64,000 nt of DNA from Granulicella sapmiensis (GTDB lineage Bacteria > Acidobacteriota > Terriglobia > Terriglobales > Acidobacteriaceae): the NCBI GenBank assembly GCA_026225395.1, contig JAMFSR010000004.1, forward strand, positions 41,837-105,836, in the 5' to 3' direction. The notes under the pieces are model-generated. The model was not told the DNA's origin. It worked only from the letters and a program-made list of their open reading frames with translations, and ran no database searches. Below, one piece after another: positions 6,001 through 42,166 of this stretch (positions are counted from its first letter, which is position 1; each line of letters opens with the position of its first letter). A program made the position numbers and the translations under genes.

Positions 6001-8872
6001 CGTTGGGATCGGCCATGCCGAGCAGCGTCGCGAGATCCTGCGATTGCTGAACGGCCTGTACGCGGCGCACGAGCGGGCGCTTCATTTCGTCGGAGAGCGT
6101 CAGGCCGGGATCGTCCTGCGGGAGGACGCGCAGCGATGCCTGATAGTAGTCGGCGGCGCGGCCGGAGTCGCCGCGGGCGGTTTCAAACTTGGCGGCGAGT
6201 ACAAGCAGCTGGCCGTCGCGTGGGTATTGGTCGAGCCCGAAGCGAAGCCAGACTTCGGCGTCCTTGAGGTCGTTCGCGGCGAGCGCGGCGCCGACAGACG
6301 AGCGGTAGTCTTCCACCGTTCCGGTGCTGAGGTCCTGCGACTTGAAGATCTCTACGGCGTTCCTGGTGAGGCCGGCACTGGCGTATCCGCTGGCGAGCGC
6401 TTTGAGCACGTCTGGGTTGCCCGGGAAAGCCTTGGCGGCGGCGTTCAGGATAGCAATGGCGCGCTTGTAGTTCCCTTCCGCAATGTTCTGGTTAGCGCGG
6501 CGGACCGCCCAGTTCGCCCATATGGTCTGGACGGTGAGACGCTGCTGGTCGGTGAGGTCCTGGCGGCCGCCGAGCATCATCAGCTGACGAAAGAGCTGGG
6601 GGTCGTTGTGCGAGTTGAAGAGCAGCCAGGCTTCCAGGATGTCGACGTCCGCAGGCGGAGGGATGTGCTGCGCGGTGTAGCGGGCCTGCACGCGGTTGTA
6701 AAACGACATCGCTGTCTGAGGCTGATTGAGCCCAGCATAAATTGAGCCTACCGTCTGCAGGTAGGCCGGGTCAGTCTCTAGTTTCAGCCGGACATTCGGA
6801 GGTATTTGCTGGATTTCGGCAAGTGCCTCCTGATCGTGCCCGGTAGAGTGCAAGGAATTCAACAAACCATTCCATGCATCCGTTCGATCCGGACTAGCCT
6901 GTAACGCCGCGCGATAGAGCGGGTAGGCGTGTTCGGTATCGCCGTGCTGAAGATAGATGCCCGCAAGCTGCACCTCAGCCGCTACCGGGACCTTCTGGCC
7001 GGAAGCCTGCTCGTTGGCTACATAGGTTTCGAGCGTCTGCTGGGCCAGGTCGTAGTGTCCCTGTCCCGCGTAGATGGCAGCAACCGTGGTCTGAAAGCCT
7101 GCCTCCTGCATGGCTGCTTCGTAGGTAGCGGGAGGCATGCTTTGCAACGTCTGATACGCTTCTGCGTCGTGGCCGAGGACATGCTCCGTGTTGACGAGTC
7201 CCTCATACGCTGCTGTGTTGGTTGAATCCCCTTCCAGGACCTGCCGGTAGAGGCCGGCTGCCTGATCCTGATGTCCGGCGGCTGAGAGCAGCGCGGCATA
7301 CTGCAGCTGCATGTCTGCCCTTACGCCACGCGCGTCGGCGGGAAACGGGAGGTCCAGTGCGCTGCGCAGAACGCGTTGCGCATCGGCGTCGCGTCCGAGG
7401 GCCTGGTAGACGGAAGCGAGCGTGCGAAGGTAGTCGGGATCGGCGATGAGCTGCTTCTTGATTCCCACCGGAATCCGGCGGTCGGTATCGAGGGCCTGCG
7501 CGTACTGGCCGGCTCCGTACTGCGCCATGAAGAGTCCACGCCATGCTGCCTTATCGTTCGGCGCCATGCGGACGTATTCGGTGAACACGCCGACAGCGGG
7601 TTCCGGCTGCTGTGCCTTCATCAGCGTCCCGCCGAGACCGAGCAGAGGGCTTGGGTCGTTGGGGCGCATGTGCGCTGCGTTGCCAAACTGGGTTTGCGCG
7701 GTGACGAGGTCGTTTTCGTTGAGCGCGGCGGTCGCAACCTGCATGGTGTAGAAGAAGCGCGAATCGCGCAGCGCCTTTTCTACGCCGGCGTCCCTTGAGC
7801 CATCCTGTACGGCCTGCTCAAGGTAGCTGATGGCGCCACCAAAGTTCGACTGGCTCATCCGTACGTAACCGAGACCGGCGAGCGCGGAAGCGTTCTGCGG
7901 TTCCTTGGCAACGATGGCCTGGAAACGCTGTTCGGCTTCGCTATAGCGCTTGGCATTGAGCGCGTTGTAGGCGGCTTGTGATTCTGCGTTGCGCTCGCGC
8001 AAGGCGGCCTGCTCGGCAAGCTGTTCGGGAGTGGGTGGAGGCGCTGACGGACCGGCGACGCGCCCGCCGCTGCGGCGTTCGGCAGCTTCGGTCTGCGCCA
8101 GCGCGGTGGAAAGCTGCGCGTCCTTATGCTTGTTCAGGTAGGCGCGAATGTCGGCGGCCGTGGCGGGGTTCTGCGCGTCCCATACCAGCGACTGGCGAAG
8201 GGCCTCGGCCGCTTCGGGGTCGGCAGGATGCTTCTGGAGCAGCTTGCGGCCTTCCTCGCGTGTGCGGGGATTGTAGGTAAGAATCTTGCCGAGCGCGATC
8301 TGATAGCGCGAATCCTGCGGGTACTTGTCCACCAGATCGCGGAGGCCGGCGATGGCGTGCGGGCGGCCGTCTTCCGTCGCGGCTTCGGTCTGGTAGTACG
8401 AGAGTGCGGGGTCGCCCGGGGGTGGGTTAGAACCGTAGACGGACCGGAGAATCGTCATCGCGCGGGCGTATTGGCCGGCCTGGGCGAGGCGTCCGGCCTC
8501 AGTCAGCTGCGAGGACATATCCTGCGCGGTGCCCATGTTCTGCACGCGCTCGATGTTAGGATCATTGGGGTTAATGGCCCGCAGCTTGTTCAGATAAGTG
8601 TTGGCTTCTTCGTTCTTGCCTTCGAGTTTGGCGGCGCGAGCCATGCCGGCCAGGGCGTCGGAGTTGTTCGGGTCTACAAGCAGAACCTGCTGCCAGGTCT
8701 GCTTGGCCATATCCATGCGTCCGCGGACCTCAAGAGCATGTGCTTTGCCGAGCAACTGCACGGTCGTGGCCTGATCCACCTGCGCGGACCCCACCCGGCC
8801 AACGCAGCCCGCCGCCAGTGCAAAAAGCACCAGGCAGACTGCGCGCATTTGATTCGGCAAACCTCTCTTCAT
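3089..8872 (-). CDS. bcsC: Cellulose synthase operon protein C (BcsC): TPR array, long low-complexity linker, C-terminal beta-barrel
   Basis: 1,927-aa ORF. Signal/lipobox-like N-terminus (LFALAAGC). TPR-type repeats over roughly the first 950 aa. The C-terminal ~430 aa are Gly/aromatic-rich with a beta-strand pattern (LGGSVIGSYRSG ... GGFFARYTIRPQ), like the BcsC C-terminal domain. It is the last gene of the bcs cluster. Confidence 0.85.
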   Translation of the reverse strand: MKRGLPNQMRAVCLVLFALAAGCVGRVGSAQVDQATTVQLLGKAHALEVRGRMDMAKQTWQQVLLVDPNNSDALAGMARAAKLEGKNEEANTYLNKLRAINPNDPNIERVQNMGTAQDMSSQLTEAGRLAQAGQYARAMTILRSVYGSNPPPGDPALSYYQTEAATEDGRPHAIAGLRDLVDKYPQDSRYQIALGKILTYNPRTREEGRKLLQKHPADPEAAEALRQSLVWDAQNPATAADIRAYLNKHKDAQLSTALAQTEAAERRSGGRVAGPSAPPPTPEQLAEQAALRERNAESQAAYNALNAKRYSEAEQRFQAIVAKEPQNASALAGLGYVRMSQSNFGGAISYLEQAVQDGSRDAGVEKALRDSRFFYTMQVATAALNENDLVTAQTQFGNAAHMRPNDPSPLLGLGGTLMKAQQPEPAVGVFTEYVRMAPNDKAAWRGLFMAQYGAGQYAQALDTDRRIPVGIKKQLIADPDYLRTLASVYQALGRDADAQRVLRSALDLPFPADARGVRADMQLQYAALLSAAGHQDQAAGLYRQVLEGDSTNTAAYEGLVNTEHVLGHDAEAYQTLQSMPPATYEAAMQEAGFQTTVAAIYAGQGHYDLAQQTLETYVANEQASGQKVPVAAEVQLAGIYLQHGDTEHAYPLYRAALQASPDRTDAWNGLLNSLHSTGHDQEALAEIQQIPPNVRLKLETDPAYLQTVGSIYAGLNQPQTAMSFYNRVQARYTAQHIPPPADVDILEAWLLFNSHNDPQLFRQLMMLGGRQDLTDQQRLTVQTIWANWAVRRANQNIAEGNYKRAIAILNAAAKAFPGNPDVLKALASGYASAGLTRNAVEIFKSQDLSTGTVEDYRSSVGAALAANDLKDAEVWLRFGLDQYPRDGQLLVLAAKFETARGDSGRAADYYQASLRVLPQDDPGLTLSDEMKRPLVRRVQAVQQSQDLATLLGMADPNVNRNTAGGLDIPVEQHPYLPSYNNPGGTAPVQIYSPGNGTNPNGGTYPNNGVTPQNSYPVYNPTNRDQKLQQQQRNSTLKDYVPQSRLEIPAPVTAATAAAPMPVIYLHPSPAMEAKYGPYVSYNPSEGLPHAVAGSRNVGERTLAESGDTSEEITARMTVASYHPQQTYTPPVYTPPATYTPPQETQQTYTPPATNTQPQTSYPAPNSSQQSTQPHPIHLHYPQPPRSGQSSTPSTQPAASTPAPVYTPPVYTPPTYTPPATYTPPRTTSYPPASTTYKAPATHSTKPILTQQPTGYLPGSGYTAPGSSSEPATAYPQPSSALPQTTSQQEGQMPDGTPIVGYLQTSQPAIHKRVAPRESSAQVRARAEAIRRNQAEAPEEMTGQSHPPAETFETSDPNAQIQNTQYSTQPYSPAAMQGSQVQQSQLPPTAPTNSTTTVRTQPQQNTLTYQNANPSQVGDSSGQQYPQPNTRGTTTTTRRRSTKPAPQTTTTTPAAAPQPNINYPGYNAPLTNQGYPQVGQPYPLATPPSDYELQQKAVPPLRGYFDPRVDDTTPLSDRQQAELDLALIEGSYTPWLGGSVIGSYRSGTPGVDRMAGVEVPFEASAALGKSWRVTAVPTAIFLNSGVLDTTTATLGTTPIFGTVKGNNNLVYPQQFSTGVGGEVQLVSNTFGFAAGYSAYGFLVRNVIGRARWKPGNGHFTLFGGRDPVKETQLSYAGLRDPGQPNNFTLGPIWGGVVQTGGGIRFDAGDEKAGLYIQGEGADLSGYHVLENRKYDGTMGAYFRVKTFPQYGSLNIGGTIFGEHYNYNERVESYGWGGYFSPNVYFLFAVPLTFNGHYKENLHYTINGSLGVQTFQESSEPYYPLDPNLQLNYQASNACTGVTTSAAQPCGFIPLNSNTGLNFSVDAKLAYRVTDHWYIGGFLSGNNTNNYDTVSGGFFARYTIRPQAQTVDYPTGLFPVQGFRPLRVP
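4390..6010 (-). repeat. Low-complexity P/T/Q/Y/S-rich coding segment inside bcsC with degenerate (T)YTPP tandem units
   Basis: The translation contains QQTYTPPVYTPPATYTPPQETQQTYTPPATNTQP ... PVYTPPVYTPPTYTPPATYTPPRTTSYPP plus long Q/T/P/S tracts. Boundaries are approximate. Confidence 0.7.
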
Positions 8873-32332: not shown

Positions 32333-32462
32333 AAGAACCACCTCGATCACTTCAGATGCAATGAGCTCCTCACCGAAGTTGTTGCCACGAGGATCAACTT
32401 TCGCCCCATCACAACCGCCCGACTTCCTATTTCCTGCCCTCCATTTCCTGTACCGTATTTTC

Positions 32463-34673
32463 ATGCGCTTCCGGTCCCTTGCCGCTCTTCTCCTCACCCT
32501 CCCAGCCACAGCCCAGACCCTCCATCTGATCCCGACGCCCAGGGCAGTCACCCCCGGCGCCACGCTGTCGCTCCCCACCGGCATTCGCATCGACTGCGCC
32601 AGCCCCTGCGACCCCGAAGACTCCTTCGCCATCGCCGACCTTCGCCAATCGCTCTCCGACCGCCACATCCCCACCACCGAAGCCCCCAACGCCCCGCACA
32701 TCCTCGTCGCCCGGTTCAGCACCAACATTGGCCGCGCCACCTACACCGAGTCGCTTCCACCCGCCCAGCAGGCCAGCAAGCCCACCGCTATGGGGCCCGA
32801 AATGGCCGCCGAAGGCTACGTCATCCTGCCCGACCCCAACGGAACCCGCGACTCCGGCCTCGTACTCACCGCCAACACCTCCGCCGGCATCTTCTACGCC
32901 CTCCAGACCATCAAGCAACTCATTATTGGAGATGGCGCGACGGCACAACTCCAGATCGCCACCATCCGCGACTGGCCCGCCATGCAGTACCGCGGCCTGC
33001 ACGACGATCTCTCCCGTGGCCCCATCGACACCCTCGACTTCCAGAAGAAGCTCATCCGCACCCTCGCCGCCTACAAGGACAACCTCTACTCCCCCTACTT
33101 CGAAACCACGCAGGCCTACGCCTCGAACCCTCTCGCCGCCGTCCCCGGCGCCGCCCTCACGGCAGACGACGCCCGCCAGCTCGTCGCCTACGCCCGCCAG
33201 TACCACGTCACCGTCGTCCCTGAGCAGGAAGCCTTCGGCCACCTCCGCCACATGCTCATCAACGAGCAGTACGCTGACGTCGCCGAAACCCCGCACGGTG
33301 CCGTCCTCTCCCCCGGCGCACCTGGCTCCATCCCCCTCATCCACAGCATGTTCACCGAGCTTGCACAGCTTTATCCATCGCCTTTCCTCCACGTCGGAGG
33401 CGACGAAACCATCGACCTCGGCCTCGGTCGCACCAAGGCCGACGTCGACGCCCGCGGCCTCGCGCCCGTCTACCTCGACTTCATCCAGCAGATCGTCGCC
33501 TCGCTCCAGCCGTTGCACCGCAAAATCCTCTTCTGGGGCGACGTCGCACAGGACGCCCCAGCCCTGGTCAAAGCCCTTCCACAATCCTTCAAAGACCAGA
33601 CCATCGCCCTCGCCTGGGGATACTCCCCCAACCCTAAGGGCTTCGCTTCGCAAATCAAGCCGTTTACCGACGCTGGCCTCGAAACCTGGGTCTCGCCCGC
33701 CATCAACAACTACCGCCAGGTCTGGCCCAACCAGCAGCAAGCCCTCGACGACATCCAGGAGTTCACCCGAGACGGCCAGCGCTACGGCGCTACCGGCCAG
33801 CTCAACACCCTTTGGGACGACGACGGCGAATCCCTCGCCAACATGAACTGGTACGGCATCCTCTTCGGCGCAGCCGCCGCCTGGCAGCCCGGCGAGAGCT
33901 CCATCCCCCAGTTCCAGCAGAGTTTCGGACAGGTTTTTCATGGCGATGCTACCGGTCTGATCAATCAAGCGCAGGATGAACTTACCGCCGCCATGTCATT
34001 GATTCACGACGATAAAATCGTCTCCGCCACCGAAGGCACTGACACCCTGTTCTGGGTCGACCCCTGGTCCAAAGATGGACAAGTCTTCGCCACCCGCATG
34101 CGCCCCATCTCACCGGCCCTGCGCCTCCACGCCGAGCATGCCATCGTCCTCGTCGCGCAGGCCCGCAACACCAACCCCAACCTCCGCGAGCAGGACGCAC
34201 TCGACGCCATGGACTTCGGCGCCCGCCGCATCGACTTCCTCGCCCTCAAATTCCAGCTCGCCGACGAAATGGCCGCCGGCTACGCCCAGGCCGTCGCCAC
34301 CATCCCCGCCGCCCTCGCCTTCAAACCAGGCACCGGCGCCCAGCGGCCCAAGCCCTCGGTCCCGGCGCTGCTCTCTGATATCAACGGCGTCAACGGCCGC
34401 CTCGAAGACCTCACCTACGGCTATGCCCAATTGCGCGACATGTTCCAGCAGCAGTGGCTCCGCACCTACCGTCCCGCTAACCTGACGCCCGTCCTCGAGC
34501 GCTTCGACTTCACCACGCAACTCTGGCTCTCACGCATCGACAAAGTCCGCTCCGCCCAGCGCCAGTGGACCGAAACCAAGTCGCTCCCCGCCGCCGCTGA
34601 TCTCGGCATCCCGGCTCCCGCTTTCGAAGCACCCGTTTCCATTCAGCTAGCCCCAGCAGTTTCTCCGAGGTAA
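32463..34673 (+). CDS. Glycoside hydrolase family 20 beta-N-acetylhexosaminidase (secreted)
   Basis: Signal peptide MRFRSLAALLLTLPATAQT, then LHLIPTPR. Catalytic-region motif FLHVGGDETIDLG (H-x-G-G-D-E). Start trimmed to ATG 32463. Confidence 0.8.
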   Translation: MRFRSLAALLLTLPATAQTLHLIPTPRAVTPGATLSLPTGIRIDCASPCDPEDSFAIADLRQSLSDRHIPTTEAPNAPHILVARFSTNIGRATYTESLPPAQQASKPTAMGPEMAAEGYVILPDPNGTRDSGLVLTANTSAGIFYALQTIKQLIIGDGATAQLQIATIRDWPAMQYRGLHDDLSRGPIDTLDFQKKLIRTLAAYKDNLYSPYFETTQAYASNPLAAVPGAALTADDARQLVAYARQYHVTVVPEQEAFGHLRHMLINEQYADVAETPHGAVLSPGAPGSIPLIHSMFTELAQLYPSPFLHVGGDETIDLGLGRTKADVDARGLAPVYLDFIQQIVASLQPLHRKILFWGDVAQDAPALVKALPQSFKDQTIALAWGYSPNPKGFASQIKPFTDAGLETWVSPAINNYRQVWPNQQQALDDIQEFTRDGQRYGATGQLNTLWDDDGESLANMNWYGILFGAAAAWQPGESSIPQFQQSFGQVFHGDATGLINQAQDELTAAMSLIHDDKIVSATEGTDTLFWVDPWSKDGQVFATRMRPISPALRLHAEHAIVLVAQARNTNPNLREQDALDAMDFGARRIDFLALKFQLADEMAAGYAQAVATIPAALAFKPGTGAQRPKPSVPALLSDINGVNGRLEDLTYGYAQLRDMFQQQWLRTYRPANLTPVLERFDFTTQLWLSRIDKVRSAQRQWTETKSLPAAADLGIPAPAFEAPVSIQLAPAVSPR

Positions 34674-34677
34674 CACT

Positions 34678-34995
34678 GTGCCAACGGTCGCTCCTGCGAT
34701 GACATGGCTTTGTATCGGCGCAGTCCTGCTCCTTGTCGGTATCATCAGGATCATTACATCGAAGGCATCCAGAAACTCGTGGAAACCGCTCCTGATCCCT
34801 CCCATAATGCTGATGACGAGCTTCCTCACCGCCAAACTATATTGGAACTTCGTCTATGACATCGTTACCGGCCATGCGTTGATCAGCACGAAAGCCACAC
34901 AGGATTTCATCGTTGGACTCTGCGGCGTGACCCCACCGCTCTTGGCATATTTTGTTTGGCGCACTACCAGAAGAAAGCAAGAACCCTCCGCATGA
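34678..34995 (+). CDS. Small hypothetical membrane protein (about 3 TM)
   Basis: 105 aa with a GTG start 5 nt after the GH20 stop. Its stop overlaps the nagA ATG (ATGA). Hydrophobic segments include WLCIGAVLLLVGIIRII, LLIPPIMLMTSFL and FIVGLCGVTPPLLAYFVW. The region is visibly less GC-rich than its neighbours. Confidence 0.4.
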   Translation: MPTVAPAMTWLCIGAVLLLVGIIRIITSKASRNSWKPLLIPPIMLMTSFLTAKLYWNFVYDIVTGHALISTKATQDFIVGLCGVTPPLLAYFVWRTTRRKQEPSA

Positions 34996-36191
34996 CCCAT
35001 ACCCTCACAGCCCGCCGCCTCATCACCGACATCGGCACCGTCGAGTTCCCTGTCCTCACCATCACCGACGGCCTCATCGCCGACATTTCGTCGGACCCGC
35101 AGGCCCTCGCCCACGAAACCGACACCCTCACCGCCGCTTTCTTCGACATCCACACCCACGGCGCCATGAACCACGACGTCATGCACGTCACCCCGGCCGA
35201 ACTCGGCGCAGTCCAACGCTTCCTCGCCACGCACGGCGTAGCCCACTACCTGCCAACCACGGTTACAGCACCCGTCGACACGACCCTGCGCGCCCTCGAA
35301 GCCCTCGCCAACGCCATCGACTCACCCACTGCCGAAAACGAAGCCACGCCCATCGGCATTCACCTCGAAGGTCCATTCCTTTCGCACGCCAAGCGCGGCG
35401 TCCATCCCATCGCCGACCTGCAACCACCGTCCATCGAGCTCTTCGACCGCTTCCAAACCGCCGCCCACGGCCACATCAAGCTAGTCACCATCGCCCCCGA
35501 ACCCAACGCCGCCAAGCCGTCTTCTGGACCCTTGGCCCCGGGCCCTGGGCCCTCAGCCGCCACCGACCTCATCGCCCACGCCACATCCCAGGGCGTCCGC
35601 GTCTCCCTCGGCCACTCCAACGCCACAGCCGCCGAGACCCTCCCCGCCATAGCCGCCGGAGCCTCCTCCGCCACCCACACCTTCAACGCCATGCGCTCCA
35701 TGGACCACCGCGAACCCGGCATCCTCGGCACAGTCCTCACCGACGACCGCCTCTTCGCCGAGCTCATCTGCGACGGCGTCCACGTCGCACCCGCCATGGT
35801 CCGCCTCTGGCTCCGTGCCAAAGGTCTCGACCGCGCCATCCTCGTCACCGACGCCATGTCCGCCGCCGGCATGCCCCCCGGCCCCTACACGCTCGCGGGC
35901 CAGCCCGTCACCGTCACCAACGACCGCGCCGTCCTCACCAACGCGCCCGAAACCCTCGCCGGCTCCATCCTCACCATGGACGCCGCCGTAGCCAACCTCC
36001 AAACCTTCACCGCAGCCTCGCTGGCCGAAGCCACCCGCCTCGCCACCCACAACCCTGCCGCGATGCTCGGCATCCCAGCCCTCACTCGCCTCGCACCCGG
36101 CAGCTCTGCCAACCTGAACCGCTTCAACGCCACCAACCAGCTAACCGCCACCTACCTCCGCGGCACCAAACTCCCAACCCCCAAACCCTAA
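34992..36191 (+). CDS. nagA: N-acetylglucosamine-6-phosphate deacetylase
   Basis: FFDIHTHGA, IGIHLEGPFLS, SLGHSNA, THTFNAM, DGVH. These are the canonical NagA metal and active-site motifs. Start at ATG 34992. Confidence 0.9.
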   Translation: MTHTLTARRLITDIGTVEFPVLTITDGLIADISSDPQALAHETDTLTAAFFDIHTHGAMNHDVMHVTPAELGAVQRFLATHGVAHYLPTTVTAPVDTTLRALEALANAIDSPTAENEATPIGIHLEGPFLSHAKRGVHPIADLQPPSIELFDRFQTAAHGHIKLVTIAPEPNAAKPSSGPLAPGPGPSAATDLIAHATSQGVRVSLGHSNATAAETLPAIAAGASSATHTFNAMRSMDHREPGILGTVLTDDRLFAELICDGVHVAPAMVRLWLRAKGLDRAILVTDAMSAAGMPPGPYTLAGQPVTVTNDRAVLTNAPETLAGSILTMDAAVANLQTFTAASLAEATRLATHNPAAMLGIPALTRLAPGSSANLNRFNATNQLTATYLRGTKLPTPKP

Positions 36192-36205: not shown

Positions 36206-37117
36206 CTACCCCCGTCGCGCAATCCAAAGCGCACCCTCCAGCGCATTCACCTCGCTCTGCGACACCGTCATCTCCGGCACCAGTTCCTTCAGCCTCTCGG
36301 TCATCGCCTCGCGCACCAGCGAAATCCTGCCCAACACACTCCCCGTAAAGCAAAGCCGTGTCACATCGCCCGCCTCGCACCGCACGATCCGCATCTTGCG
36401 AACCACCAGAGACACCTGCTCCGCCAGGTCCTCGCCCGCACGCTCCAAAACCCGCAGCGCCACGGGATCGCCATGTTCGGCGCCACTGGCTACCACCGTC
36501 GTCAGCTCCGCAAAGTTGGTCCGCTTGGAGTGGTTGGCCTTCGCCACCAACTCCCCCAGGCTCTTCAATCCCCAGAAACCCTGAATCTCTTCCAGCAAAT
36601 CCGTCGGCTGCCCACGGTCACGCGCCCGCAGCGCCGCCTTCACGGCCTCCAACCCGATCCAACCACCCGACCCCTCATCCCCAATCACCGGCCCCCATCC
36701 ACCTGCCGTCAACCGCGTCCCATCCGAACACCGCCCGATCACATTCGATCCCGTCCCCGCGATCACGAACACCCCCGGCCCACCCTGGAACGCGGCCTCC
36801 AGCGCAATCGCCTCATCCCCCAGCACCGCAACCTTGCCCGAGACCATCCCACGCAGCGTCTTCTCACCCCACTGCCGCACATTGTCGGCGCCGATACCCG
36901 CCAGCCCCATGCACGTCCGCGTAATCTCATCCGGCCCTACATGCGCCTCAATCGCCGCACCGCGCACCAGCTCCTGCAGCCGCCTGGTGGCGACTTCCTC
37001 GCCCACGCTCATCAGCTTCACCGTGCCACCGGTCGCGCTGGCCAGCACCCGCGTTTCGTCCGCAACCCAGCACTGTGTCTTGGTCCCACCTGCATCAATT
37101 GCAACAAACTTCGCCAT
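36206..37117 (-). CDS. BadF/BadG/BcrA/BcrD-type ATPase: N-acetylglucosamine (or MurNAc) kinase
   Basis: MAKFVAIDAGGTKTQCWV phosphate-1 motif, VIAGTGSNVIG, WGPVIGDEGSGGWIG. 303 aa. Confidence 0.8.
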   Translation of the reverse strand: MAKFVAIDAGGTKTQCWVADETRVLASATGGTVKLMSVGEEVATRRLQELVRGAAIEAHVGPDEITRTCMGLAGIGADNVRQWGEKTLRGMVSGKVAVLGDEAIALEAAFQGGPGVFVIAGTGSNVIGRCSDGTRLTAGGWGPVIGDEGSGGWIGLEAVKAALRARDRGQPTDLLEEIQGFWGLKSLGELVAKANHSKRTNFAELTTVVASGAEHGDPVALRVLERAGEDLAEQVSLVVRKMRIVRCEAGDVTRLCFTGSVLGRISLVREAMTERLKELVPEMTVSQSEVNALEGALWIARRG

Positions 37118-37211
37118 CGTTCCCCGTGCTCTCCTCAGATTCGGCCCGCAAAGCCGTTATCATAACCTGCATCGCCCTAAAGCGTTCGAAGTCCCAGTCC
37201 CAGGAGTCACG

Positions 37212-40200
37212 TTGCCCCAGCCGCTTGCCGCCCTTGCCATCGTCACCACCCCGCAGCGGCTCAGCGCCTTCGACCTCACCGTGATCGCCGTCTACCTCGC
37301 CGGCATCACCCTCTTCGGTCTGCGATTCCGCGAAAAAAAGGGTGCCACCAAACAGGATAAGTCCCTCAAGTCCTACTTCCTGGCCAACAACACCATCCCT
37401 TGGTGGGCCATCGCGCTCTCCATCGTCTCGGCCGAAACCTCGACCCTCACCATCATCTCCATCCCGGGCGTAGCCTTTGCAGGCGACTTCGGCTTCCTGC
37501 AGGTCGTCCTCGGCTACATGCTCGGCCGCATCGTAGTCGCCGCGCTGTTCCTGCCGCGCTACTTCGCCGGAGAGATGCTCACCGCCTACCAGCTCATCGA
37601 CCAGCGCTTCGGCAAAGTGCTGCACAAAACCACCGCCGGCCTCTTCCTGCTCACCCGCGCCGCCGCCGAAGGCGTCCGCGTCTTCGCCGTCTCCATCGTC
37701 GTCGGCATCGCCATCGGCACGCGCGACATCCTCTCCATCGCCATCATCTCCGCCCTCACCCTTCTCTACACGTTCGAAGGCGGCATGGCCGCCGTCATCT
37801 GGACCGACGTCGTCCAGATGGCCATCTACATCGGCGGCACCGTCGTCGCCATCCTCACGCTCGGAACGCATGTACAAGGCGGCTGGACGACCATCCACCA
37901 CGTCGCCGGAGCCGCGGGCAAGTTCCACATGCTCAACTTCGCCTTCAACCTCACCCAGACCTACACCTTCTGGGCGGGCGTGCTCGGCGGCACATTTCTC
38001 ACCATGGCCTCGCACGGCACCGACCAGCTCATGGTCCAGCGCATGCTGGCCGCTCGCAGCCTGCGCGAATCCCGCCTCGCGCTGCTCTCCTCCGGCGTAG
38101 TCATCTTCATCCAGTTCGCGCTCTTCCTTCTCATCGGCGCCGGCCTCTACGTCTTCTACGGCCAACACCCGACGACCTTCGCTTCCGGCGACCGCATCTT
38201 CCCCACCTTCATCGTCCGCGAGATGCCCATCGGCATCGCCGGCCTCCTCGTCGCCGCGATCCTCGCCGCCGCCATGTCCAACCTCTCCGCCGCGCTCAAC
38301 AGCCTTTCCTCAACCACCGTCGTCGACTTCTACATGCACCTTCGCCCCAGGGCCGACGACCGTGAGCGCAACCTCATCAGCAAATCCTCTACCGTCCTCT
38401 GGGCGCTTGTGCTCTTCGCCATAGCTGTCTACTCCGTAAAGGTCGGCGGCAGGGGCCACGTCGTCGAAATCGGCCTCAGCATCGCATCCGTCGCCTACGG
38501 CTGCCTGCTCGGCGTCTTCCTGCTCGGCACGCTCACCAAATTCGCCACAGAAATCGGGACAGCCGTCGGTATGGTCGTCGGCTTCATTCTTAACCTCTGG
38601 CTCTGGCAAGGAACCTTCCCTGTGCATCTCGGCCCCATCACCATCCCCAAAATCGCCTTTACCTGGTACGTCCTGATCGGAGCCATCGTGACCTTCGCCG
38701 TCGGCAGCCTCGCCAGCCTCATCTTCCGCAAGCAATCGATACGCAAGCCCATCGCTGCGTCTTTGCTCTTGCTCTTTTTGTTGTCCTTCCCGCAGGGAAT
38801 CTGCGTCTCCACCGCACAGGCACAAACGCTTGAAACTCCCCTCACCTTCACCCCCGTTACCAACCTCATCACCGAGGCCACCGCAGCCCACCACCCCCCC
38901 GGCGCGGTCGTCATCATCGGCCACAACGGCAAGGTCGTCTACGACCACGTCTTCGGCGACCGCAAGCTAGCCGGCGAACCCGGCCCCCTACCAGGACCAG
39001 ACGGCAAACCCGACCTCGCCCCGGAGCCCATGACCGAAGACACCATCTTCGACATGGCCTCGCTCTCCAAAGACCTCGCCACCGCGACCTCCATCATGCA
39101 ACTTTACGAAGCCGGTAAGCTCCAGTTCGACGCCCCCGTCGAGCAATACCTGCCCGCCTTCAACACCGATCACGATCCCGTCCGCGCCAAGGTCACCATC
39201 CGCATGCTGCTCACGCACACCTCCGGCGAAGACCCGGACGTCTCCCTCAAAGCTCCCTGGGGCCTCGCCACACCGGACAAAGCCGAAGGCTTCCGCCTGG
39301 CCCTCACCACCCCGCTCCTCAACCCACCCGCCAGCAAATTCCTCTACTCCGACATCAACTTCATCCTCCTCGGCGACATTATCGAAACCCTCTCCGGCCA
39401 AACCGAAGACGTCTACACCCACGACCACATCTTCCAGCCCCTCGGCATGACCGAAACCCGCTACCTCCCACTCGCCAAAGCCTGCGGCCCGCACAAAGTC
39501 GTCGGCGCGGCCATCGTCTGGGCGCCCACACCTCCAGGACGCATCACCTACGCCTGCGCCCCCGGCACATGGTCCACCTCGCTGCTCTCGCGCATCGCCC
39601 CCGAAACCCACGACGACGAAGGCAACGCACAAACCAACCCCCACTTCGACATGCTCACCCGCGGCTCCGTCCACGACCCCACCACGCGCCGCATGGGCGG
39701 CGTAGCCGGACACGCCGGCGTATTCTCAACCGCACACGATATCTCGCTCTACGCCTCTGCTCTGCTCGAAAAGCTCCTCCACAACACCGGCCCATTCCCC
39801 CTCAAGCAGTCCACGCTCCTGCTCATGACCACCCCTCAACAGCCCGGCCATGAACCCGGCCAGATCGCCGACGCGCAAGCCGCTAACGACACAGCCATCA
39901 AGGCCGGCGACAAGCCATCCGCCGACAACCTTGCCCCGCACTATCCCGCAATCAAAGGACAGGACCTCCGCGGCTTCGGCTGGGACATCGACACCGCCTT
40001 CTCCAAACCCCGCGGCGCCATCTTCCCCATCGGCAGCTTCGGTCACACCGGCTTCACCGGAACCAGCCTATGGATGGATCCAACCACCGATACCTACGTG
40101 ATCATGCTGGCGAACGCCGTCCACCCCCGTGGCAACACACCCATTTCAAATCTCCGCGGTCAACTGGCTACACTTGCTGCTAAGGCACTTGGAATAGCAG

Positions 40201-41612
40201 GCCCTTGCCCAACAAACGCAAATTGCGATCTAGTGGTCCGCGTCGGAGATGTTACGGTTGTTCCATCCACGGCAACAGTGCAGACGTTGATAGGCGAATC
40301 GTCGCCACAAACCCTCACCGGCATCGACATCCTCGAACAAACCAAAGCCTCCGCCCTCCGCGTGCTTTCCAACGCCCCAGACGGCTCTCTCCGCGTCGGC
40401 CTCCTCACCAACCAGAACGGCCTAGACAGCCAGGGCCACCGCACCATCGACTACCTCGCCAGCCTCGCCCCCACCAAGATCCACCTCACCACTCTCTTCT
40501 CCCCTGAGCACGGCATCACCGGCAAGCTCGACCAAGCCTCCGTCAACGGCGAAACCGACGCCGCCACCGGCCTGCATGTCACCTCACTCTACGGCGCCAA
40601 AGAAGCCGACCGCCGTCCCACGCACGACCAACTCAAAGACCTCGACGCCGTCGTCATCGACCTCCAGGACGCCGGCGTCCCCTTCTGGACTTACGAGTCC
40701 GTCCTCGGCTACTTCCTCGAAGCCGTCTCGCACGAAGTCCACGACTATCAGCACAACCTCAACATCATCGTGCTCGACCGCCCCAACCCCGTAGGCGGCC
40801 TCGCTGTCCAGGGCCCAGTCGTCGACCCCGACAAGACCTCCTACGTCGCCTACACCACCATTCCCATCCGCCACGGTCTCACCTACGGCGAACTCGCCCG
40901 CTACATCAACGCGACCAAACACCTCGACGCGCCCCTCGCCGTCATCACCATGCAGAACTGGCATCGCGCCGAGCTCTGGCCCGACACTGGCCTTCCCTGG
41001 ACCAGTCCAAGCCCCAACCTCCGCTCGCCCGAAGCCGCCATCCTCTACCCCGCACTTGGCCTCATTGAATACACCAACATCTCCGTAGGCCGAGGCACCC
41101 CGCACCCCTTCAGCTTCTTCGGCGCCGGTATCCCACCCGCCCCCAAACCCACCACCACCCCGGGTGCCCCATCTTCGCCGACGGCTTCATCGTCGACTAA
41201 GGTGGGTTCGCAGGCATCCTCGCTCCAGAAAGCGTGGTTCAACGCCCACACTGTAGCCGACGCCCTCACCGCCCGCCACATTCCCGGCGTCACCTTCACC
41301 CCCACCACCGAGCCCATCGTCGAAGACGCCAACCACTACCCCTTCCACGGCCAGACCATCGAAGCCGTCCACGTCACCGCCACCGACGTTCACCTCCTCG
41401 ACACCCCCGAGCTCGGCATCGAGATCCTCTCTACCCTCCACCATCTCTACCCCACCCAGTTCCAGCTTGAAAAATCTATGCCACTCGTCGCCAACCGCGC
41501 CACCATGGACGCCATCGCGCATGGCGACGATCCCCGCACCATCGCCGCCTCGTGGCAGCCCGCGCTCGACACCTTCAAAGCGGAACGCTCCCCGATCCTG
41601 CTGTACCCATAG
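37212..41612 (+). CDS. Tripartite fusion: sodium:solute symporter (SSS) + beta-lactamase-fold serine hydrolase + DUF1343/NamZ-like exo-beta-N-acetylmuramidase module
   Basis: One open frame. SSS motifs: GGMAAVIWTDVVQ, HGTDQLMVQRMLAARS, ~13 TM. Junction: RKQSIRKPIAASLLLLFLLSFPQGICVSTAQAQ. Hydrolase motifs: SLSK (SxxK), YSDIN, FGHTGFTG. DUF1343 motifs: LLTNQNGLD, LFSPEHG, DLQDAGVPFWTYES, RPNPVGG. The part of the ORF upstream of 37212 overlaps the kinase gene. TTG 37212 has AGGAG 5 nt upstream. Confidence 0.8.
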   Translation: MPQPLAALAIVTTPQRLSAFDLTVIAVYLAGITLFGLRFREKKGATKQDKSLKSYFLANNTIPWWAIALSIVSAETSTLTIISIPGVAFAGDFGFLQVVLGYMLGRIVVAALFLPRYFAGEMLTAYQLIDQRFGKVLHKTTAGLFLLTRAAAEGVRVFAVSIVVGIAIGTRDILSIAIISALTLLYTFEGGMAAVIWTDVVQMAIYIGGTVVAILTLGTHVQGGWTTIHHVAGAAGKFHMLNFAFNLTQTYTFWAGVLGGTFLTMASHGTDQLMVQRMLAARSLRESRLALLSSGVVIFIQFALFLLIGAGLYVFYGQHPTTFASGDRIFPTFIVREMPIGIAGLLVAAILAAAMSNLSAALNSLSSTTVVDFYMHLRPRADDRERNLISKSSTVLWALVLFAIAVYSVKVGGRGHVVEIGLSIASVAYGCLLGVFLLGTLTKFATEIGTAVGMVVGFILNLWLWQGTFPVHLGPITIPKIAFTWYVLIGAIVTFAVGSLASLIFRKQSIRKPIAASLLLLFLLSFPQGICVSTAQAQTLETPLTFTPVTNLITEATAAHHPPGAVVIIGHNGKVVYDHVFGDRKLAGEPGPLPGPDGKPDLAPEPMTEDTIFDMASLSKDLATATSIMQLYEAGKLQFDAPVEQYLPAFNTDHDPVRAKVTIRMLLTHTSGEDPDVSLKAPWGLATPDKAEGFRLALTTPLLNPPASKFLYSDINFILLGDIIETLSGQTEDVYTHDHIFQPLGMTETRYLPLAKACGPHKVVGAAIVWAPTPPGRITYACAPGTWSTSLLSRIAPETHDDEGNAQTNPHFDMLTRGSVHDPTTRRMGGVAGHAGVFSTAHDISLYASALLEKLLHNTGPFPLKQSTLLLMTTPQQPGHEPGQIADAQAANDTAIKAGDKPSADNLAPHYPAIKGQDLRGFGWDIDTAFSKPRGAIFPIGSFGHTGFTGTSLWMDPTTDTYVIMLANAVHPRGNTPISNLRGQLATLAAKALGIAGPCPTNANCDLVVRVGDVTVVPSTATVQTLIGESSPQTLTGIDILEQTKASALRVLSNAPDGSLRVGLLTNQNGLDSQGHRTIDYLASLAPTKIHLTTLFSPEHGITGKLDQASVNGETDAATGLHVTSLYGAKEADRRPTHDQLKDLDAVVIDLQDAGVPFWTYESVLGYFLEAVSHEVHDYQHNLNIIVLDRPNPVGGLAVQGPVVDPDKTSYVAYTTIPIRHGLTYGELARYINATKHLDAPLAVITMQNWHRAELWPDTGLPWTSPSPNLRSPEAAILYPALGLIEYTNISVGRGTPHPFSFFGAGIPPAPKPTTTPGAPSSPTASSSTKVGSQASSLQKAWFNAHTVADALTARHIPGVTFTPTTEPIVEDANHYPFHGQTIEAVHVTATDVHLLDTPELGIEILSTLHHLYPTQFQLEKSMPLVANRATMDAIAHGDDPRTIAASWQPALDTFKAERSPILLYP

Positions 41613-41704
41613 CCCACTTTCTAGGCATGACGAACCTCCCGCCTAGGCGTATGCTCACACTCACAACAGAGTTCAAAAGCCTGTCGCAGCAGAAGGAGAG
41701 CACC

Positions 41705-42166
41705 ATGCACCTGATCGTCATTGCACTTCTCATCGGCATCATCGCCGGACTCCGCGCCTTCACCGCTCCCGCAGCCGTCAGTTGGGCCGCAAAGTTTGGC
41801 GTCCTCTCTCTTGGCGGAACGCACCTCGCCTGGCTCGGCGCGACCGTCACGACATGGATCATCACCGCGCTCGCCCTCTTTGAACTCGTCAACGACCAGA
41901 ACCCCAAGACCCCCAGCCGCAAAGTCCCACCGCAGTTCATCACCCGCGTTGTAACGGGCGGGTTCTCCGGCGCCGCCATCGGTCTAGGTCTCGGCAATCT
42001 CTGGATCGGCCTCGTCTGCGGCGCTATCGGTGCGGTCATCGGCACGCTCGGCGGCGCAGCCTTCCGCGGCGCCCTCGCCAAAGCCTTCGGCCGCGACCTT
42101 CCCGCCGGTCTTCTCGAAGACGCCATCGCCATCGTTGGCGCTTACCTCATCGTTTCGCACATCTAG
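41705..42166 (+). CDS. DUF4126-like integral membrane protein
   Basis: 153 aa from ATG 41705 (GAAGGAGAG upstream). There are four hydrophobic segments. LRAFTAPAAVSWAA and LVNDQNPKTPSRK resemble my recollection of DUF4126. Confidence 0.6.
   Translation: MHLIVIALLIGIIAGLRAFTAPAAVSWAAKFGVLSLGGTHLAWLGATVTTWIITALALFELVNDQNPKTPSRKVPPQFITRVVTGGFSGAAIGLGLGNLWIGLVCGAIGAVIGTLGGAAFRGALAKAFGRDLPAGLLEDAIAIVGAYLIVSHI

Follow-up and report, generated by a model that had tools for sequence, protein, structure and literature searches.

A sodium:solute symporter fused in frame, through an internal signal-peptide-like segment, to a putative periplasmic amidase–NamZ module in Acidobacteriaceae

In Bacillus subtilis, NagZ, AmiE and NamZ digest peptidoglycan from its non-reducing end jointly and not singly, and N-acetylmuramic acid (MurNAc) is taken up by MurP, a transporter of the phosphotransferase system (PTS) (PMC8054146). 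A second importer, MurT, has been described as a transporter family of its own in Bacteroidetes (PMC7670621). The paper that founded the NamZ family names Bacteroidetes, some Firmicutes, Actinobacteria and gamma-proteobacteria and does not mention a fusion. Here, we report the analysis of a 64,000-nt stretch of Granulicella sapmiensis DNA (GCA_026225395.1, JAMFSR010000004.1, positions 41,837–105,836 of the forward strand; hereafter, the window), in which a single open reading frame (ORF) joins a sodium:solute symporter to a beta-lactamase-fold hydrolase and a NamZ module. We find that this fusion is a real, conserved gene architecture of Acidobacteriaceae. As to its product, we cautiously favour a conserved precursor consisting of a symporter with 13 transmembrane (TM) segments, an internal signal peptide and a periplasmic two-enzyme module.

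The ORF and its modules are located in the window as follows.
37212–41612, plus strand: whole fusion ORF, 1,466 amino acids plus stop.
37212–38726, plus strand: sodium:solute symporter module, residues 1–505 (PF00474, TIGR00813), with about 13 predicted TM segments, the N terminus outside and the C terminus cytoplasmic.
38727–38822, plus strand: signal-peptide-like segment (TM14), residues 506–537, with n-region RKQSIRK, core PIAASLLLLFLLSF and c-region PQGICVSTAQA.
38859–40133, plus strand: beta-lactamase-fold serine hydrolase, Pfam residues 550–974, with S617LSK620 (39060–39071), Y712SDIN716 and H945TG.
40395–41606, plus strand: NamZ (GH171, DUF1343) module, with NamZ_N at residues 1062–1273, NamZ_C at residues 1341–1465, E1099 (40506–40508) and R1294.

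The plus-strand frame runs without interruption from 36834 to the stop codon at 41610–41612, and a start at the TTG at 37212 yields 1,466 residues, equal in length to the database protein P0001, which matches the product with 100% identity and coverage. Pfam places SSF (PF00474; residues 55–457, 1.5e-37, 129.9 bits against a cut-off of 22.8), Beta-lactamase (PF00144; residues 550–974, 8.1e-55, 186.7 bits), NamZ_N (residues 1062–1273, 9.2e-67, 224.8 bits) and NamZ_C (residues 1341–1465, 1.3e-29, 104.3 bits) in this order, NamZ being covered by PF07075 and PF20732; the NCBIfam model TIGR00813 (sss) matches with 210.2 bits, above its cut-off of 184. All four Pfam families are present in each of the 120 best database hits or clusters (65–100% identity, 1380–1583 residues), which form the homologue set used throughout and whose named members are annotated only as 'SSS family transporter' or 'sodium/solute symporter'. 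In the alignment of this set, hydrolase and transporter motifs are invariant or nearly so (S617-x-x-K620, Y712-S-D-x-N716, H945-T-G, E1099-H-G in PEHG and R1294 in GRGT, as well as WTDVVQ and TDQLMVQR of the transporter), which implies purifying selection acting on each of the three modules.

Scanning one genome for each species yielded 588 stretches coding for a relative, with full-length matches reaching down to roughly 48% identity. The best 80 of the 588 (loci L001–L080) are nearly all labelled Acidobacteriaceae or other Acidobacteriota, together with a few metagenome-assembled genomes (MAGs) labelled otherwise. Within Acidobacteriaceae, the architecture occurs in Granulicella, Edaphobacter, Tunturiibacter, Terriglobus and Bryocella; cultured carriers include Granulicella, Edaphobacter modestus, Bryocella elongata and Terriglobus, and two complete chromosomes carry the fusion (Tunturiibacter psychrotolerans NZ_CP132941 and T. 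empetritectus NZ_CP132929). The junction between SSF and Beta-lactamase is open in frame in 75 of the 79 loci that have both parts, and a single uninterrupted frame runs from end to end in 67 of the 76 that have all three, most of the others showing frame changes, several of them in MAGs. A sequence-only reading of this DNA had proposed one uninterrupted frame with three modules in this order and had quoted their motifs. The Pfam order (SSF, Beta-lactamase and NamZ (DUF1343) on one polypeptide) and the motif alignment bear this out, the same four domains recur in the 120 homologues, and a missed stop or indel is contradicted by those homologues and by the open junctions.

The orientation of the transporter determines on which side of the membrane the hydrolases would lie. 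A hydropathy scan found 13 segments within residues 19–505, in keeping with the 13–14 TM core of the sodium:solute symporter family, and a fourteenth at residues 512–532. The best solved relative of the transporter, with modest identity, is Protein Data Bank (PDB) entry 5NV9 (3.2e-45, aligned over residues 23–462), deposited as 'putative sodium:solute symporter', which we take to be the Proteus mirabilis sialic-acid symporter SiaT, a protein of 13 TM segments whose N terminus is outside and whose C terminus is inside. The next solved relatives are SMCT1, NIS and SMVT, of the anion/carboxylate branch of the SSS family (TC 2.A.21). With the N terminus outside, the predicted cytoplasmic loops contain 22 Lys and Arg residues compared to 5 in the predicted periplasmic loops, and the loop between TM13 and TM14 reads RKQSIRK. 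The 13 + 1 segments, the orientation and this charge distribution together argue that the hydrolase half is exported, and the predicted topology places the hydrolases in the periplasm, in line with the earlier proposal, and not in the cytoplasm. An AlphaFold2 model of the transporter with TM14 (residues 1–573, 30-sequence alignment) was unusable, with a predicted local distance difference test score (pLDDT) of 46 and a predicted template modelling score (pTM) of 0.32.

The junction segment resembles a signal peptide located within the polypeptide. Signal peptidase I is predicted to cut it between A537 (38820–38822) and Q538 (38823–38825), AQA↓QT (the arrow marks the predicted site here and below), and the sequence from Q538 onwards is QTLETPLTFTPVTNLITEATAAHHPPGAVVIIGHNGK. 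A positive n-region (net charge +1 to +4) and a short uncharged core occur in all 120 homologues, the core being hypervariable. At 15–30 residues past the last Lys or Arg, 114 of the 120 have a small-x-small↓Q site and the other six AxA↓E; shuffled residues give a small-x-small↓Q site in 21.7%. Position −1 is Ala in 97 homologues and Ser in 15, and in the alignment the −1 column holds Ala, Ser, Thr or Gly and the +1 column Gln in 103 of 120 rows, amid neighbouring columns that are hypervariable and mostly gaps. All five plausible secreted proteins of the window (GH20, LolA, GH5 and the products of the ORFs at 8872 and 47510) likewise have A↓Q at their likely cleavage sites. These endings match the 'Q-rule' of T. 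forsythia (Tannerella forsythia) NamZ, where cyclisation of the +1 Gln is proposed to follow cleavage (bioRxiv 10.1101/2021.12.02.470905). The conservation of Gln at +1 would be explained if it became the N terminus, and is hard to explain otherwise. In one clade (L042–L057), the hydrophobic core is around 11 residues long, as in KKRYAVLLVVLLVPQLKA↓QDGEFRQIDRI, and the first hydrolase helix begins about five residues past the site, an arrangement too short for a stable anchor and without a linker. The junction thus fits the cleavable Sec type, which is defined by a positive n-region, a hydrophobic core of roughly 7–15 residues and small residues at −3 and −1.

Relatives without the transporter have a signal peptide at the corresponding position. 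A search with fusion residues 300–1466 against 1.84 billion representatives returned a handful of long three-part clusters and dozens of 50%-identity clusters of about 750–830 residues, 38–46% identical to the fusion. The latter consist of Beta-lactamase, NamZ_N and NamZ_C (Pfam), and most begin with a signal or lipoprotein peptide; variants carry added FG-GAP/propeller domains, one (P0255) combines two NamZ units with SLH domains, and another (P0199) joins GH3, Beta-lactamase and NamZ in one chain, the family make-up of B. subtilis NagZ, AmiE and NamZ. The closest stand-alone protein, P0128, is 51% identical and has the N terminus MRRTLCLPLSLLALFLCAHAAAA↓QIPTQPDF; its sequence after the site, QIPTQPDFSAEDRLL, lines up with window AQA↓QTLETPLTFTPVTNLI. 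By this alignment, TM14 is shown to correspond in position to the predicted N-terminal signal peptide of P0128. The locus encoding P0128 (L081) has the order GH20, SSF (505 residues), then TAG, a single base c and GTG, followed by Beta-lactamase–NamZ; its SSF is 62% identical to the transporter part of the window, and SSF and Beta-lactamase–NamZ lie in different frames. In three further loci (L045, L058 and L072), an in-frame stop is located exactly at the junction, followed in L045 and L058 by Met and a signal peptide. Fused and split states thus coexist in the family. Since a split hydrolase can only be a free enzyme in the periplasm, this coexistence suggests that the fused form gives rise to the same products. 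The fusion would have originated by the joining of a transporter gene to a directly downstream, signal-peptide-bearing hydrolase gene.

Away from this group, no SSF gene neighbours the distant Beta-lactamase–NamZ genes encoding P0134, P0137, P0139, P0141 and P0163, suggesting that the linkage to a transporter is lineage-specific, with one independent case. This case, L086 (882–8397, Logan SRR13608733), is an overlapping operon of SSF (608 residues), Peptidase_M14 and the GH3–Beta-lactamase–NamZ protein P0199 (1,349 residues), whose SSF is only 25% identical to that of the window; it provides an independent hint that SSS transporters have been recruited to peptidoglycan-sugar chemistry. Members of the M14 peptidase family include murein-peptide peptidases. 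A CpeT-family gene lies nearby in L087, a sister contig of L086. In two distant lineages (L085, 3873–8358; L088, 3803–8391), the stand-alone Beta-lactamase–NamZ gene is preceded by Polysacc_deac_1 and DUF4015 genes, an alternative setting that recurs and suggests de-N-acetylated or modified glycans as substrates.

We lean towards a polyprotein cut by signal peptidase I over a permanent tether, because of the −3/−1/+1 pattern, the A↓Q motif of the host, the short-core linkerless clade and the split relatives. In this scheme, the transporter C terminus would end in the cytoplasm and the internal signal peptide would form the fourteenth membrane crossing, exporting the hydrolase half; signal peptidase I would then cut after A537 (AQA↓Q) and free a soluble bifunctional enzyme of about 930 residues, with the transporter staying in the membrane. 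Several points weigh against this scheme. Cleavage is read from a sequence pattern, and the fusion has been kept in at least 75 sampled lineages without evident advantage if its halves separate anyway. Under a strict rule that allows no charge before the site, only 43 of the 120 homologues qualify (against 5% of shuffles; the median core of these 43 is 14 residues). In the window and many homologues the c-region is long (11–13 residues), owing to an in-frame repeat insertion, and sometimes charged; and in many members, a Pro/Ala/Thr-rich stretch of 12–54 residues follows the site and has the look of a tether.

These points fit a permanent tether, which we regard as possible, if doubtful, and in which the fourteenth segment would be an uncleaved signal-anchor that keeps the amidase and the muramidase on the symporter by a flexible linker, so that MurNAc is freed at its entrance. 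That 75 of 79 loci have retained the single frame suggests selection for the linkage as such; the variable Pro/Ala/Thr-rich linker is present in most members; P513–A537 of the window, 25 uncharged residues, can span a membrane; and the long or charged c-regions produced by repeat insertions could impair signal peptidase. An anchor, however, needs neither the small residues at −3 and −1 nor the Gln at +1 that are conserved in an otherwise hypervariable stretch and match the cleavage motif of the host, and a tether is hard to reconcile with a whole clade (L042–L057) of virtually linkerless proteins or with the forms split by stops (L045, L058, L072 and L081), in which the hydrolase must work untethered. 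Partial processing lies between cleavage and tether. Should the precursor be uncleaved or partly cleaved, which we consider rather unlikely, it would constitute a covalent digest-and-import unit and a third, SSS-type, family of MurNAc importers beside MurP and MurT. The sequence-only reading had the hydrolases tethered to the transporter and predicted substrate release at the mouth of the importer. The joint instead has the form of a cleavable-type Sec signal peptide and has split relatives, cleavage itself being inferred; release at the mouth is unsupported as stated, the junction pattern pointing to a precursor cut in two.

Two other readings of the junction were rejected. The Cys in QGIC does not indicate a lipoprotein: the residue at −1 is Ile or Pro, so that there is no lipobox, and the Cys is missing in many homologues. 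Internal translation initiation in the window was rejected as well, as codons 506–516 contain no ATG, GTG or TTG, and a start at the first TTG, which sits within the hydrophobic core, would drop the n-region.

The junction also contains a short repeat.
38784–38804, plus strand: short hairpin-type dispersed repeat TCCTTCCCGCAGGGAATCTGC, read in frame as SFPQGIC within the signal-like segment; single copy in the window.
No inverted repeat at the junction passed the thresholds of an automated repeat search; inspection by eye and blastn-short revealed the 5-bp hairpin and the dispersed repeat. The repeat belongs to a dispersed hairpin family of Acidobacteriaceae, exemplified by TGTCATTCCCGNAGGGAATCTGC, in which some variants have a longer loop and copies outside the junction are mostly intergenic. 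Copies occur in L046 (9931–9979 and 11638–11686), L024 (3094–3127), L019 (14758–14809), L079 (4481–4520), L058 (12418–12440) and L061 (2291–2360 and 11582–11615). In fusion junctions the repeat reads in frame as LSFPQGIC, VILSxAKDP or LSFRxAAEE; in L052 it lies in the Beta-lactamase–NamZ linker, and the contig of L066 begins inside it. The linkers of the fusion thus tolerate in-frame repeat insertion, which explains part of the variation in linker length.

The NamZ module matches PDB entries 4K05 (2.3e-49) and 4JJA (4e-36), with PEHG aligned to PEHG in both, and E1099, H1100, G1101 and R1294 are invariant in the 120 homologues, consistent with a predicted exo-beta-N-acetylmuramidase. In B. subtilis NamZ (BsNamZ), the putative catalytic Glu92 is at the tip of strand 2 and Arg279 is contributed by the C-terminal domain (PMC8054146); judged by position, E1099 and R1294 would be their counterparts. 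The Beta-lactamase module has the SxxK, YxN and (K/H)(T/S)G motifs of a serine beta-lactamase/PBP fold and is presumed, by analogy, to be a periplasmic AmiE-like MurNAc-L-Ala amidase. Its matches in the PDB are generic (best, 7SPN, 1.4e-16), and its best NCBIfam model, PBP4B, scores 127 bits, below the cut-off of 385; what points to an AmiE-type role is association, namely the fusion with NamZ and, in P0199, with GH3 and NamZ. AlphaFold2 modelled the hydrolase half with pLDDT 70.8 and pTM 0.50, NamZ being confident (about 85–95), Beta-lactamase moderate and the inter-domain geometry unreliable. Compared with the stand-alone proteins of about 800 residues, the Beta-lactamase module is around 100 residues longer (fusion residues 760–935, about 39490–40016), and a Pro/Thr/Ser-rich insertion separates NamZ_N from NamZ_C (residues 1306–1340, about 41127–41231). 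AlphaFold2 models this NamZ insertion, and also parts of the Beta-lactamase region, with low confidence.

The genes preceding the fusion suggest a route for the released sugars.
32361–34673, plus strand: GH20 beta-N-acetylhexosaminidase (Pfam Glyco_hydro_20 and Glyco_hydro_20b).
34956–36191, plus strand: NagA-like amidohydrolase (N-acetylglucosamine (GlcNAc)-6-phosphate deacetylase type), predicted cytoplasmic (Pfam Amidohydro_1).
36206–37117, minus strand: BadF/BcrAD-type sugar kinase, divergent from the fusion (BcrAD_BadFG, PF01869, 5.3e-35, 121.7 bits).
37118–37211, strand not applicable: divergent intergenic region of 94 bp between kinase and fusion, from the coordinates.
The GH20 enzyme probably starts at the Met at 32463, with the signal peptide MRFRSLAALLLTLPATA↓QT, and is presumed to remove terminal GlcNAc in the periplasm, the role of NagZ in B. 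subtilis. The NagA-like assignment draws on sequence pattern and context. The kinase finds its best solved structure over its full length in 8ZO3, 'N-acetylmuramic acid/N-acetylglucosamine kinase' (1.4e-32), and matches 8OW9, the 'putative novel MurNAc kinase' of T. forsythia, marginally (E about 1e-3); it is probably a MurNAc/GlcNAc kinase, and the 94-bp region between it and the fusion is presumed to be a shared regulatory region. Among the best 80 loci, GH20 lies upstream of the fusion in 53, NagA is a neighbour in 30 and a divergent kinase in 31; the downstream genes are not conserved. The three neighbours named in the sequence-only reading are thus present and support a salvage-type neighbourhood, and its analogy with AmiE and NamZ of B. 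subtilis agrees with the published work (PMC8054146).

In several relatives, an Hsp70/actin-like ORF of about 445 residues (...GIDFGTTNSS...), absent from the window, lies between GH20 and the fusion (L009, 5077–6516; L016, 7647–8960; L020, 8317–9654; L021, 8595–9938; L071, 6604–7938). It occurs without the BadF-type kinase in some loci and alongside it in others.

Together, these genes could form a sequential pathway. GH20 would take GlcNAc off the non-reducing end of peptidoglycan fragments, the Beta-lactamase-fold domain would take off the stem peptide and NamZ would take off MurNAc; one of the sugars set free would enter through the symporter, to be phosphorylated by the divergent MurNAc/GlcNAc-type kinase and processed further by NagA. 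As the importer is not a PTS transporter, a separate kinase is needed, as in the MurT/MurK/MurQ pathway of T. forsythia (PMC10465942). Our favoured guess for the cargo of the symporter is MurNAc, with GlcNAc possible. MurNAc is favoured because it is the product of NamZ, because carboxylates or anions are the cargo of the nearest solved transporters and MurNAc is a carboxylate sugar, and because the invariant residues R149 and R156 flank the position aligned with R135 of SiaT, one helical turn to either side on the same helix. Residues D199, S356 and S359, invariant in the 120 homologues, align with D182, S342 and S345 of SiaT, and SiaT S343 and S346 are replaced by N357 and A360 in the window. 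We take D182, S342 and S345 to be sodium-site residues of SiaT, and R135 its carboxylate-binding residue.

Three observations speak against MurNAc salvage by this route: the nearest solved transporter, 5NV9 (SiaT), carries sialic acid; several of the residues that contact the sugar in SiaT are changed (T58 to E75 and Q82 to Tyr, R135 likewise not being conserved); and a MurQ gene was not found by tblastn in the window or in the 80 loci with 10-kb flanks, a weak search made with an Escherichia coli query. The same architecture could serve another chemistry, with a different N-acetylated or acidic glycan as substrate, such as an exopolysaccharide or oligomers derived from chitin, and GlcNAc or another product, rather than MurNAc, as the import, although we consider this improbable. 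GH20, NagA and the kinase would be equally at home in GlcNAc or chitin catabolism, for which the MurQ result and the altered putative sugar contacts would also speak; the specificities of NamZ enzymes vary, TfNamZ1 releasing disaccharides (bioRxiv 10.1101/2021.12.02.470905); and the Beta-lactamase-fold domain matches solved structures only generically. Every characterised NamZ, however, uses MurNAc-terminated substrates (PMC8054146; bioRxiv 10.1101/2021.12.02.470905), and the Beta-lactamase–NamZ pair and the GH3–Beta-lactamase–NamZ triple have the family composition of B. subtilis amiE-nagZ-namZ. The M14 peptidase gene in the L086 operon, the MurNAc/GlcNAc kinase as top solved relative of the divergent kinase, and the anions or carboxylates carried by SiaT, SMCT1, NIS and SMVT likewise weigh against this alternative, MurNAc being a carboxylate sugar.

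The weakest alternative is an artefact, in which two or three genes would have been joined by misassembly into a chimera, a frameshift or an overlooked stop codon. Junction stops or frame changes in L045, L058, L072, L080, L018, L046, L074 and L075, MAGs among them, could speak for it, but it is practically dismissed by the identical 1,466-residue protein, by the same architecture in over 120 clusters that come from independent assemblies and include complete chromosomes of cultured strains, and by the in-frame junction in 75 of 79 loci.

Downstream, the ORF at 41552–42166 overlaps the end of the fusion by 61 bases and matches DUF4126 below threshold (25.6 versus 27.5 bits, Pfam). Its true start is probably the ATG near 41702 (MHLIVIALLIG...), and, since just 3 of the 80 loci have a similar gene after the fusion, it is not part of the system. 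Strand asymmetry in the window is very strong: the GC skew is −0.25 to −0.34 over about 28 kb (24000–52000) regardless of gene orientation, +0.05 to +0.19 over the initial 16 kb and near 0 past 52 kb. At third codon positions, plus-strand genes have 65–73% C and 12–18% G, and minus-strand genes 56–61% G and 17% C. In other Acidobacteriaceae (L001–L080), the orthologous locus has a GC skew anywhere between −0.44 and +0.31, and its flanks share its sign. The asymmetry looks like a lineage-wide, strand-specific mutational bias, and the switches of skew within the window may mark rearrangement or replication landmarks.

All three modules are known families, and the amidase–NamZ pair is common in databases, although no paper discussing it was found; the novelty lies in the in-frame union of a sodium:solute symporter and an internal signal peptide with these hydrolases across a major family of soil bacteria. 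The claim that the architecture was undescribed thus stands for the addition of the transporter, the Beta-lactamase–NamZ pair being already widespread: the literature searched contained no description of it and no paper joining DUF1343/NamZ with Acidobacteria, a symporter or domain fusions. As a Rosetta-stone link, the fusion gives an SSS subfamily that is still uncharacterised a testable class of substrates (amino sugars from peptidoglycan, with MurNAc as the first candidate), and it suggests a way in which the Acidobacteriaceae, abundant in soil, may live on bacterial necromass or recycle their own cell wall. It also appears to be a natural and widespread case in which a polytopic membrane protein and a secreted enzyme would be made from one ORF by means of an internal signal peptide, with the split relatives as built-in controls, and its junction shows how two tightly adjoining genes can fuse with minimal sequence change while keeping their targeting information. 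If the product is uncleaved, it would be an unusual, physically coupled enzyme and transporter.

A precedent for such a precursor is the cytochrome b/c1 precursor FbcH of Bradyrhizobium japonicum, which Thony-Meyer, James and Hennecke are said to have reported (PNAS, 1991) and which is reportedly processed into two proteins. FbcH resembles the window fusion in combining a polytopic membrane protein, an internal signal peptide and a periplasm-facing protein in one ORF, and differs in its unrelated families and function as respiratory complex subunits. SiaT (5NV9) shares with the window transporter the layout of 13 TM segments and the conserved residues matching D182, S342 and S345; the window adds a fourteenth segment and a 930-residue periplasmic extension. 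The stand-alone Beta-lactamase–NamZ proteins and the GH3–Beta-lactamase–NamZ triple (P0128, P0134, P0141, P0163 and P0199) have the same hydrolase module at 38–51% identity, with the signal peptide N-terminal where that of the fusion is internal, on a polypeptide without a transporter; an SSF gene is missing from most of their sampled contexts.

The MurQ-MurR-MurP-AmiE-NagZ-NamZ system of B. subtilis (PMC8054146) uses the same hydrolase families, exported and acting sequentially from the non-reducing end with an exo-N-acetylglucosaminidase partner, and, as proposed for the window, the released amino sugars are imported and catabolised. In B. subtilis, however, the three enzymes are secreted separately, the glucosaminidase is of GH3 and MurP phosphorylates its substrate during uptake, whereas in the window the putative amidase and NamZ share one chain, GH20 is the glucosaminidase candidate, an SSS importer is encoded in the same ORF, the kinase is separate and MurQ was not found nearby in the weak tblastn search. 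T. forsythia, with NamZ1/NamZ2, MurT/AmpG, MurK and MurQ (bioRxiv 10.1101/2021.12.02.470905; PMC7670621; PMC10465942), resembles the window in being Gram-negative, in having periplasmic NamZ with A↓Q sites and in using non-PTS inner-membrane importers followed by an ASKHA-family MurNAc kinase; it differs in that its NamZ proteins stand alone, without fusion to a transporter, and that an amidase has not been identified there.

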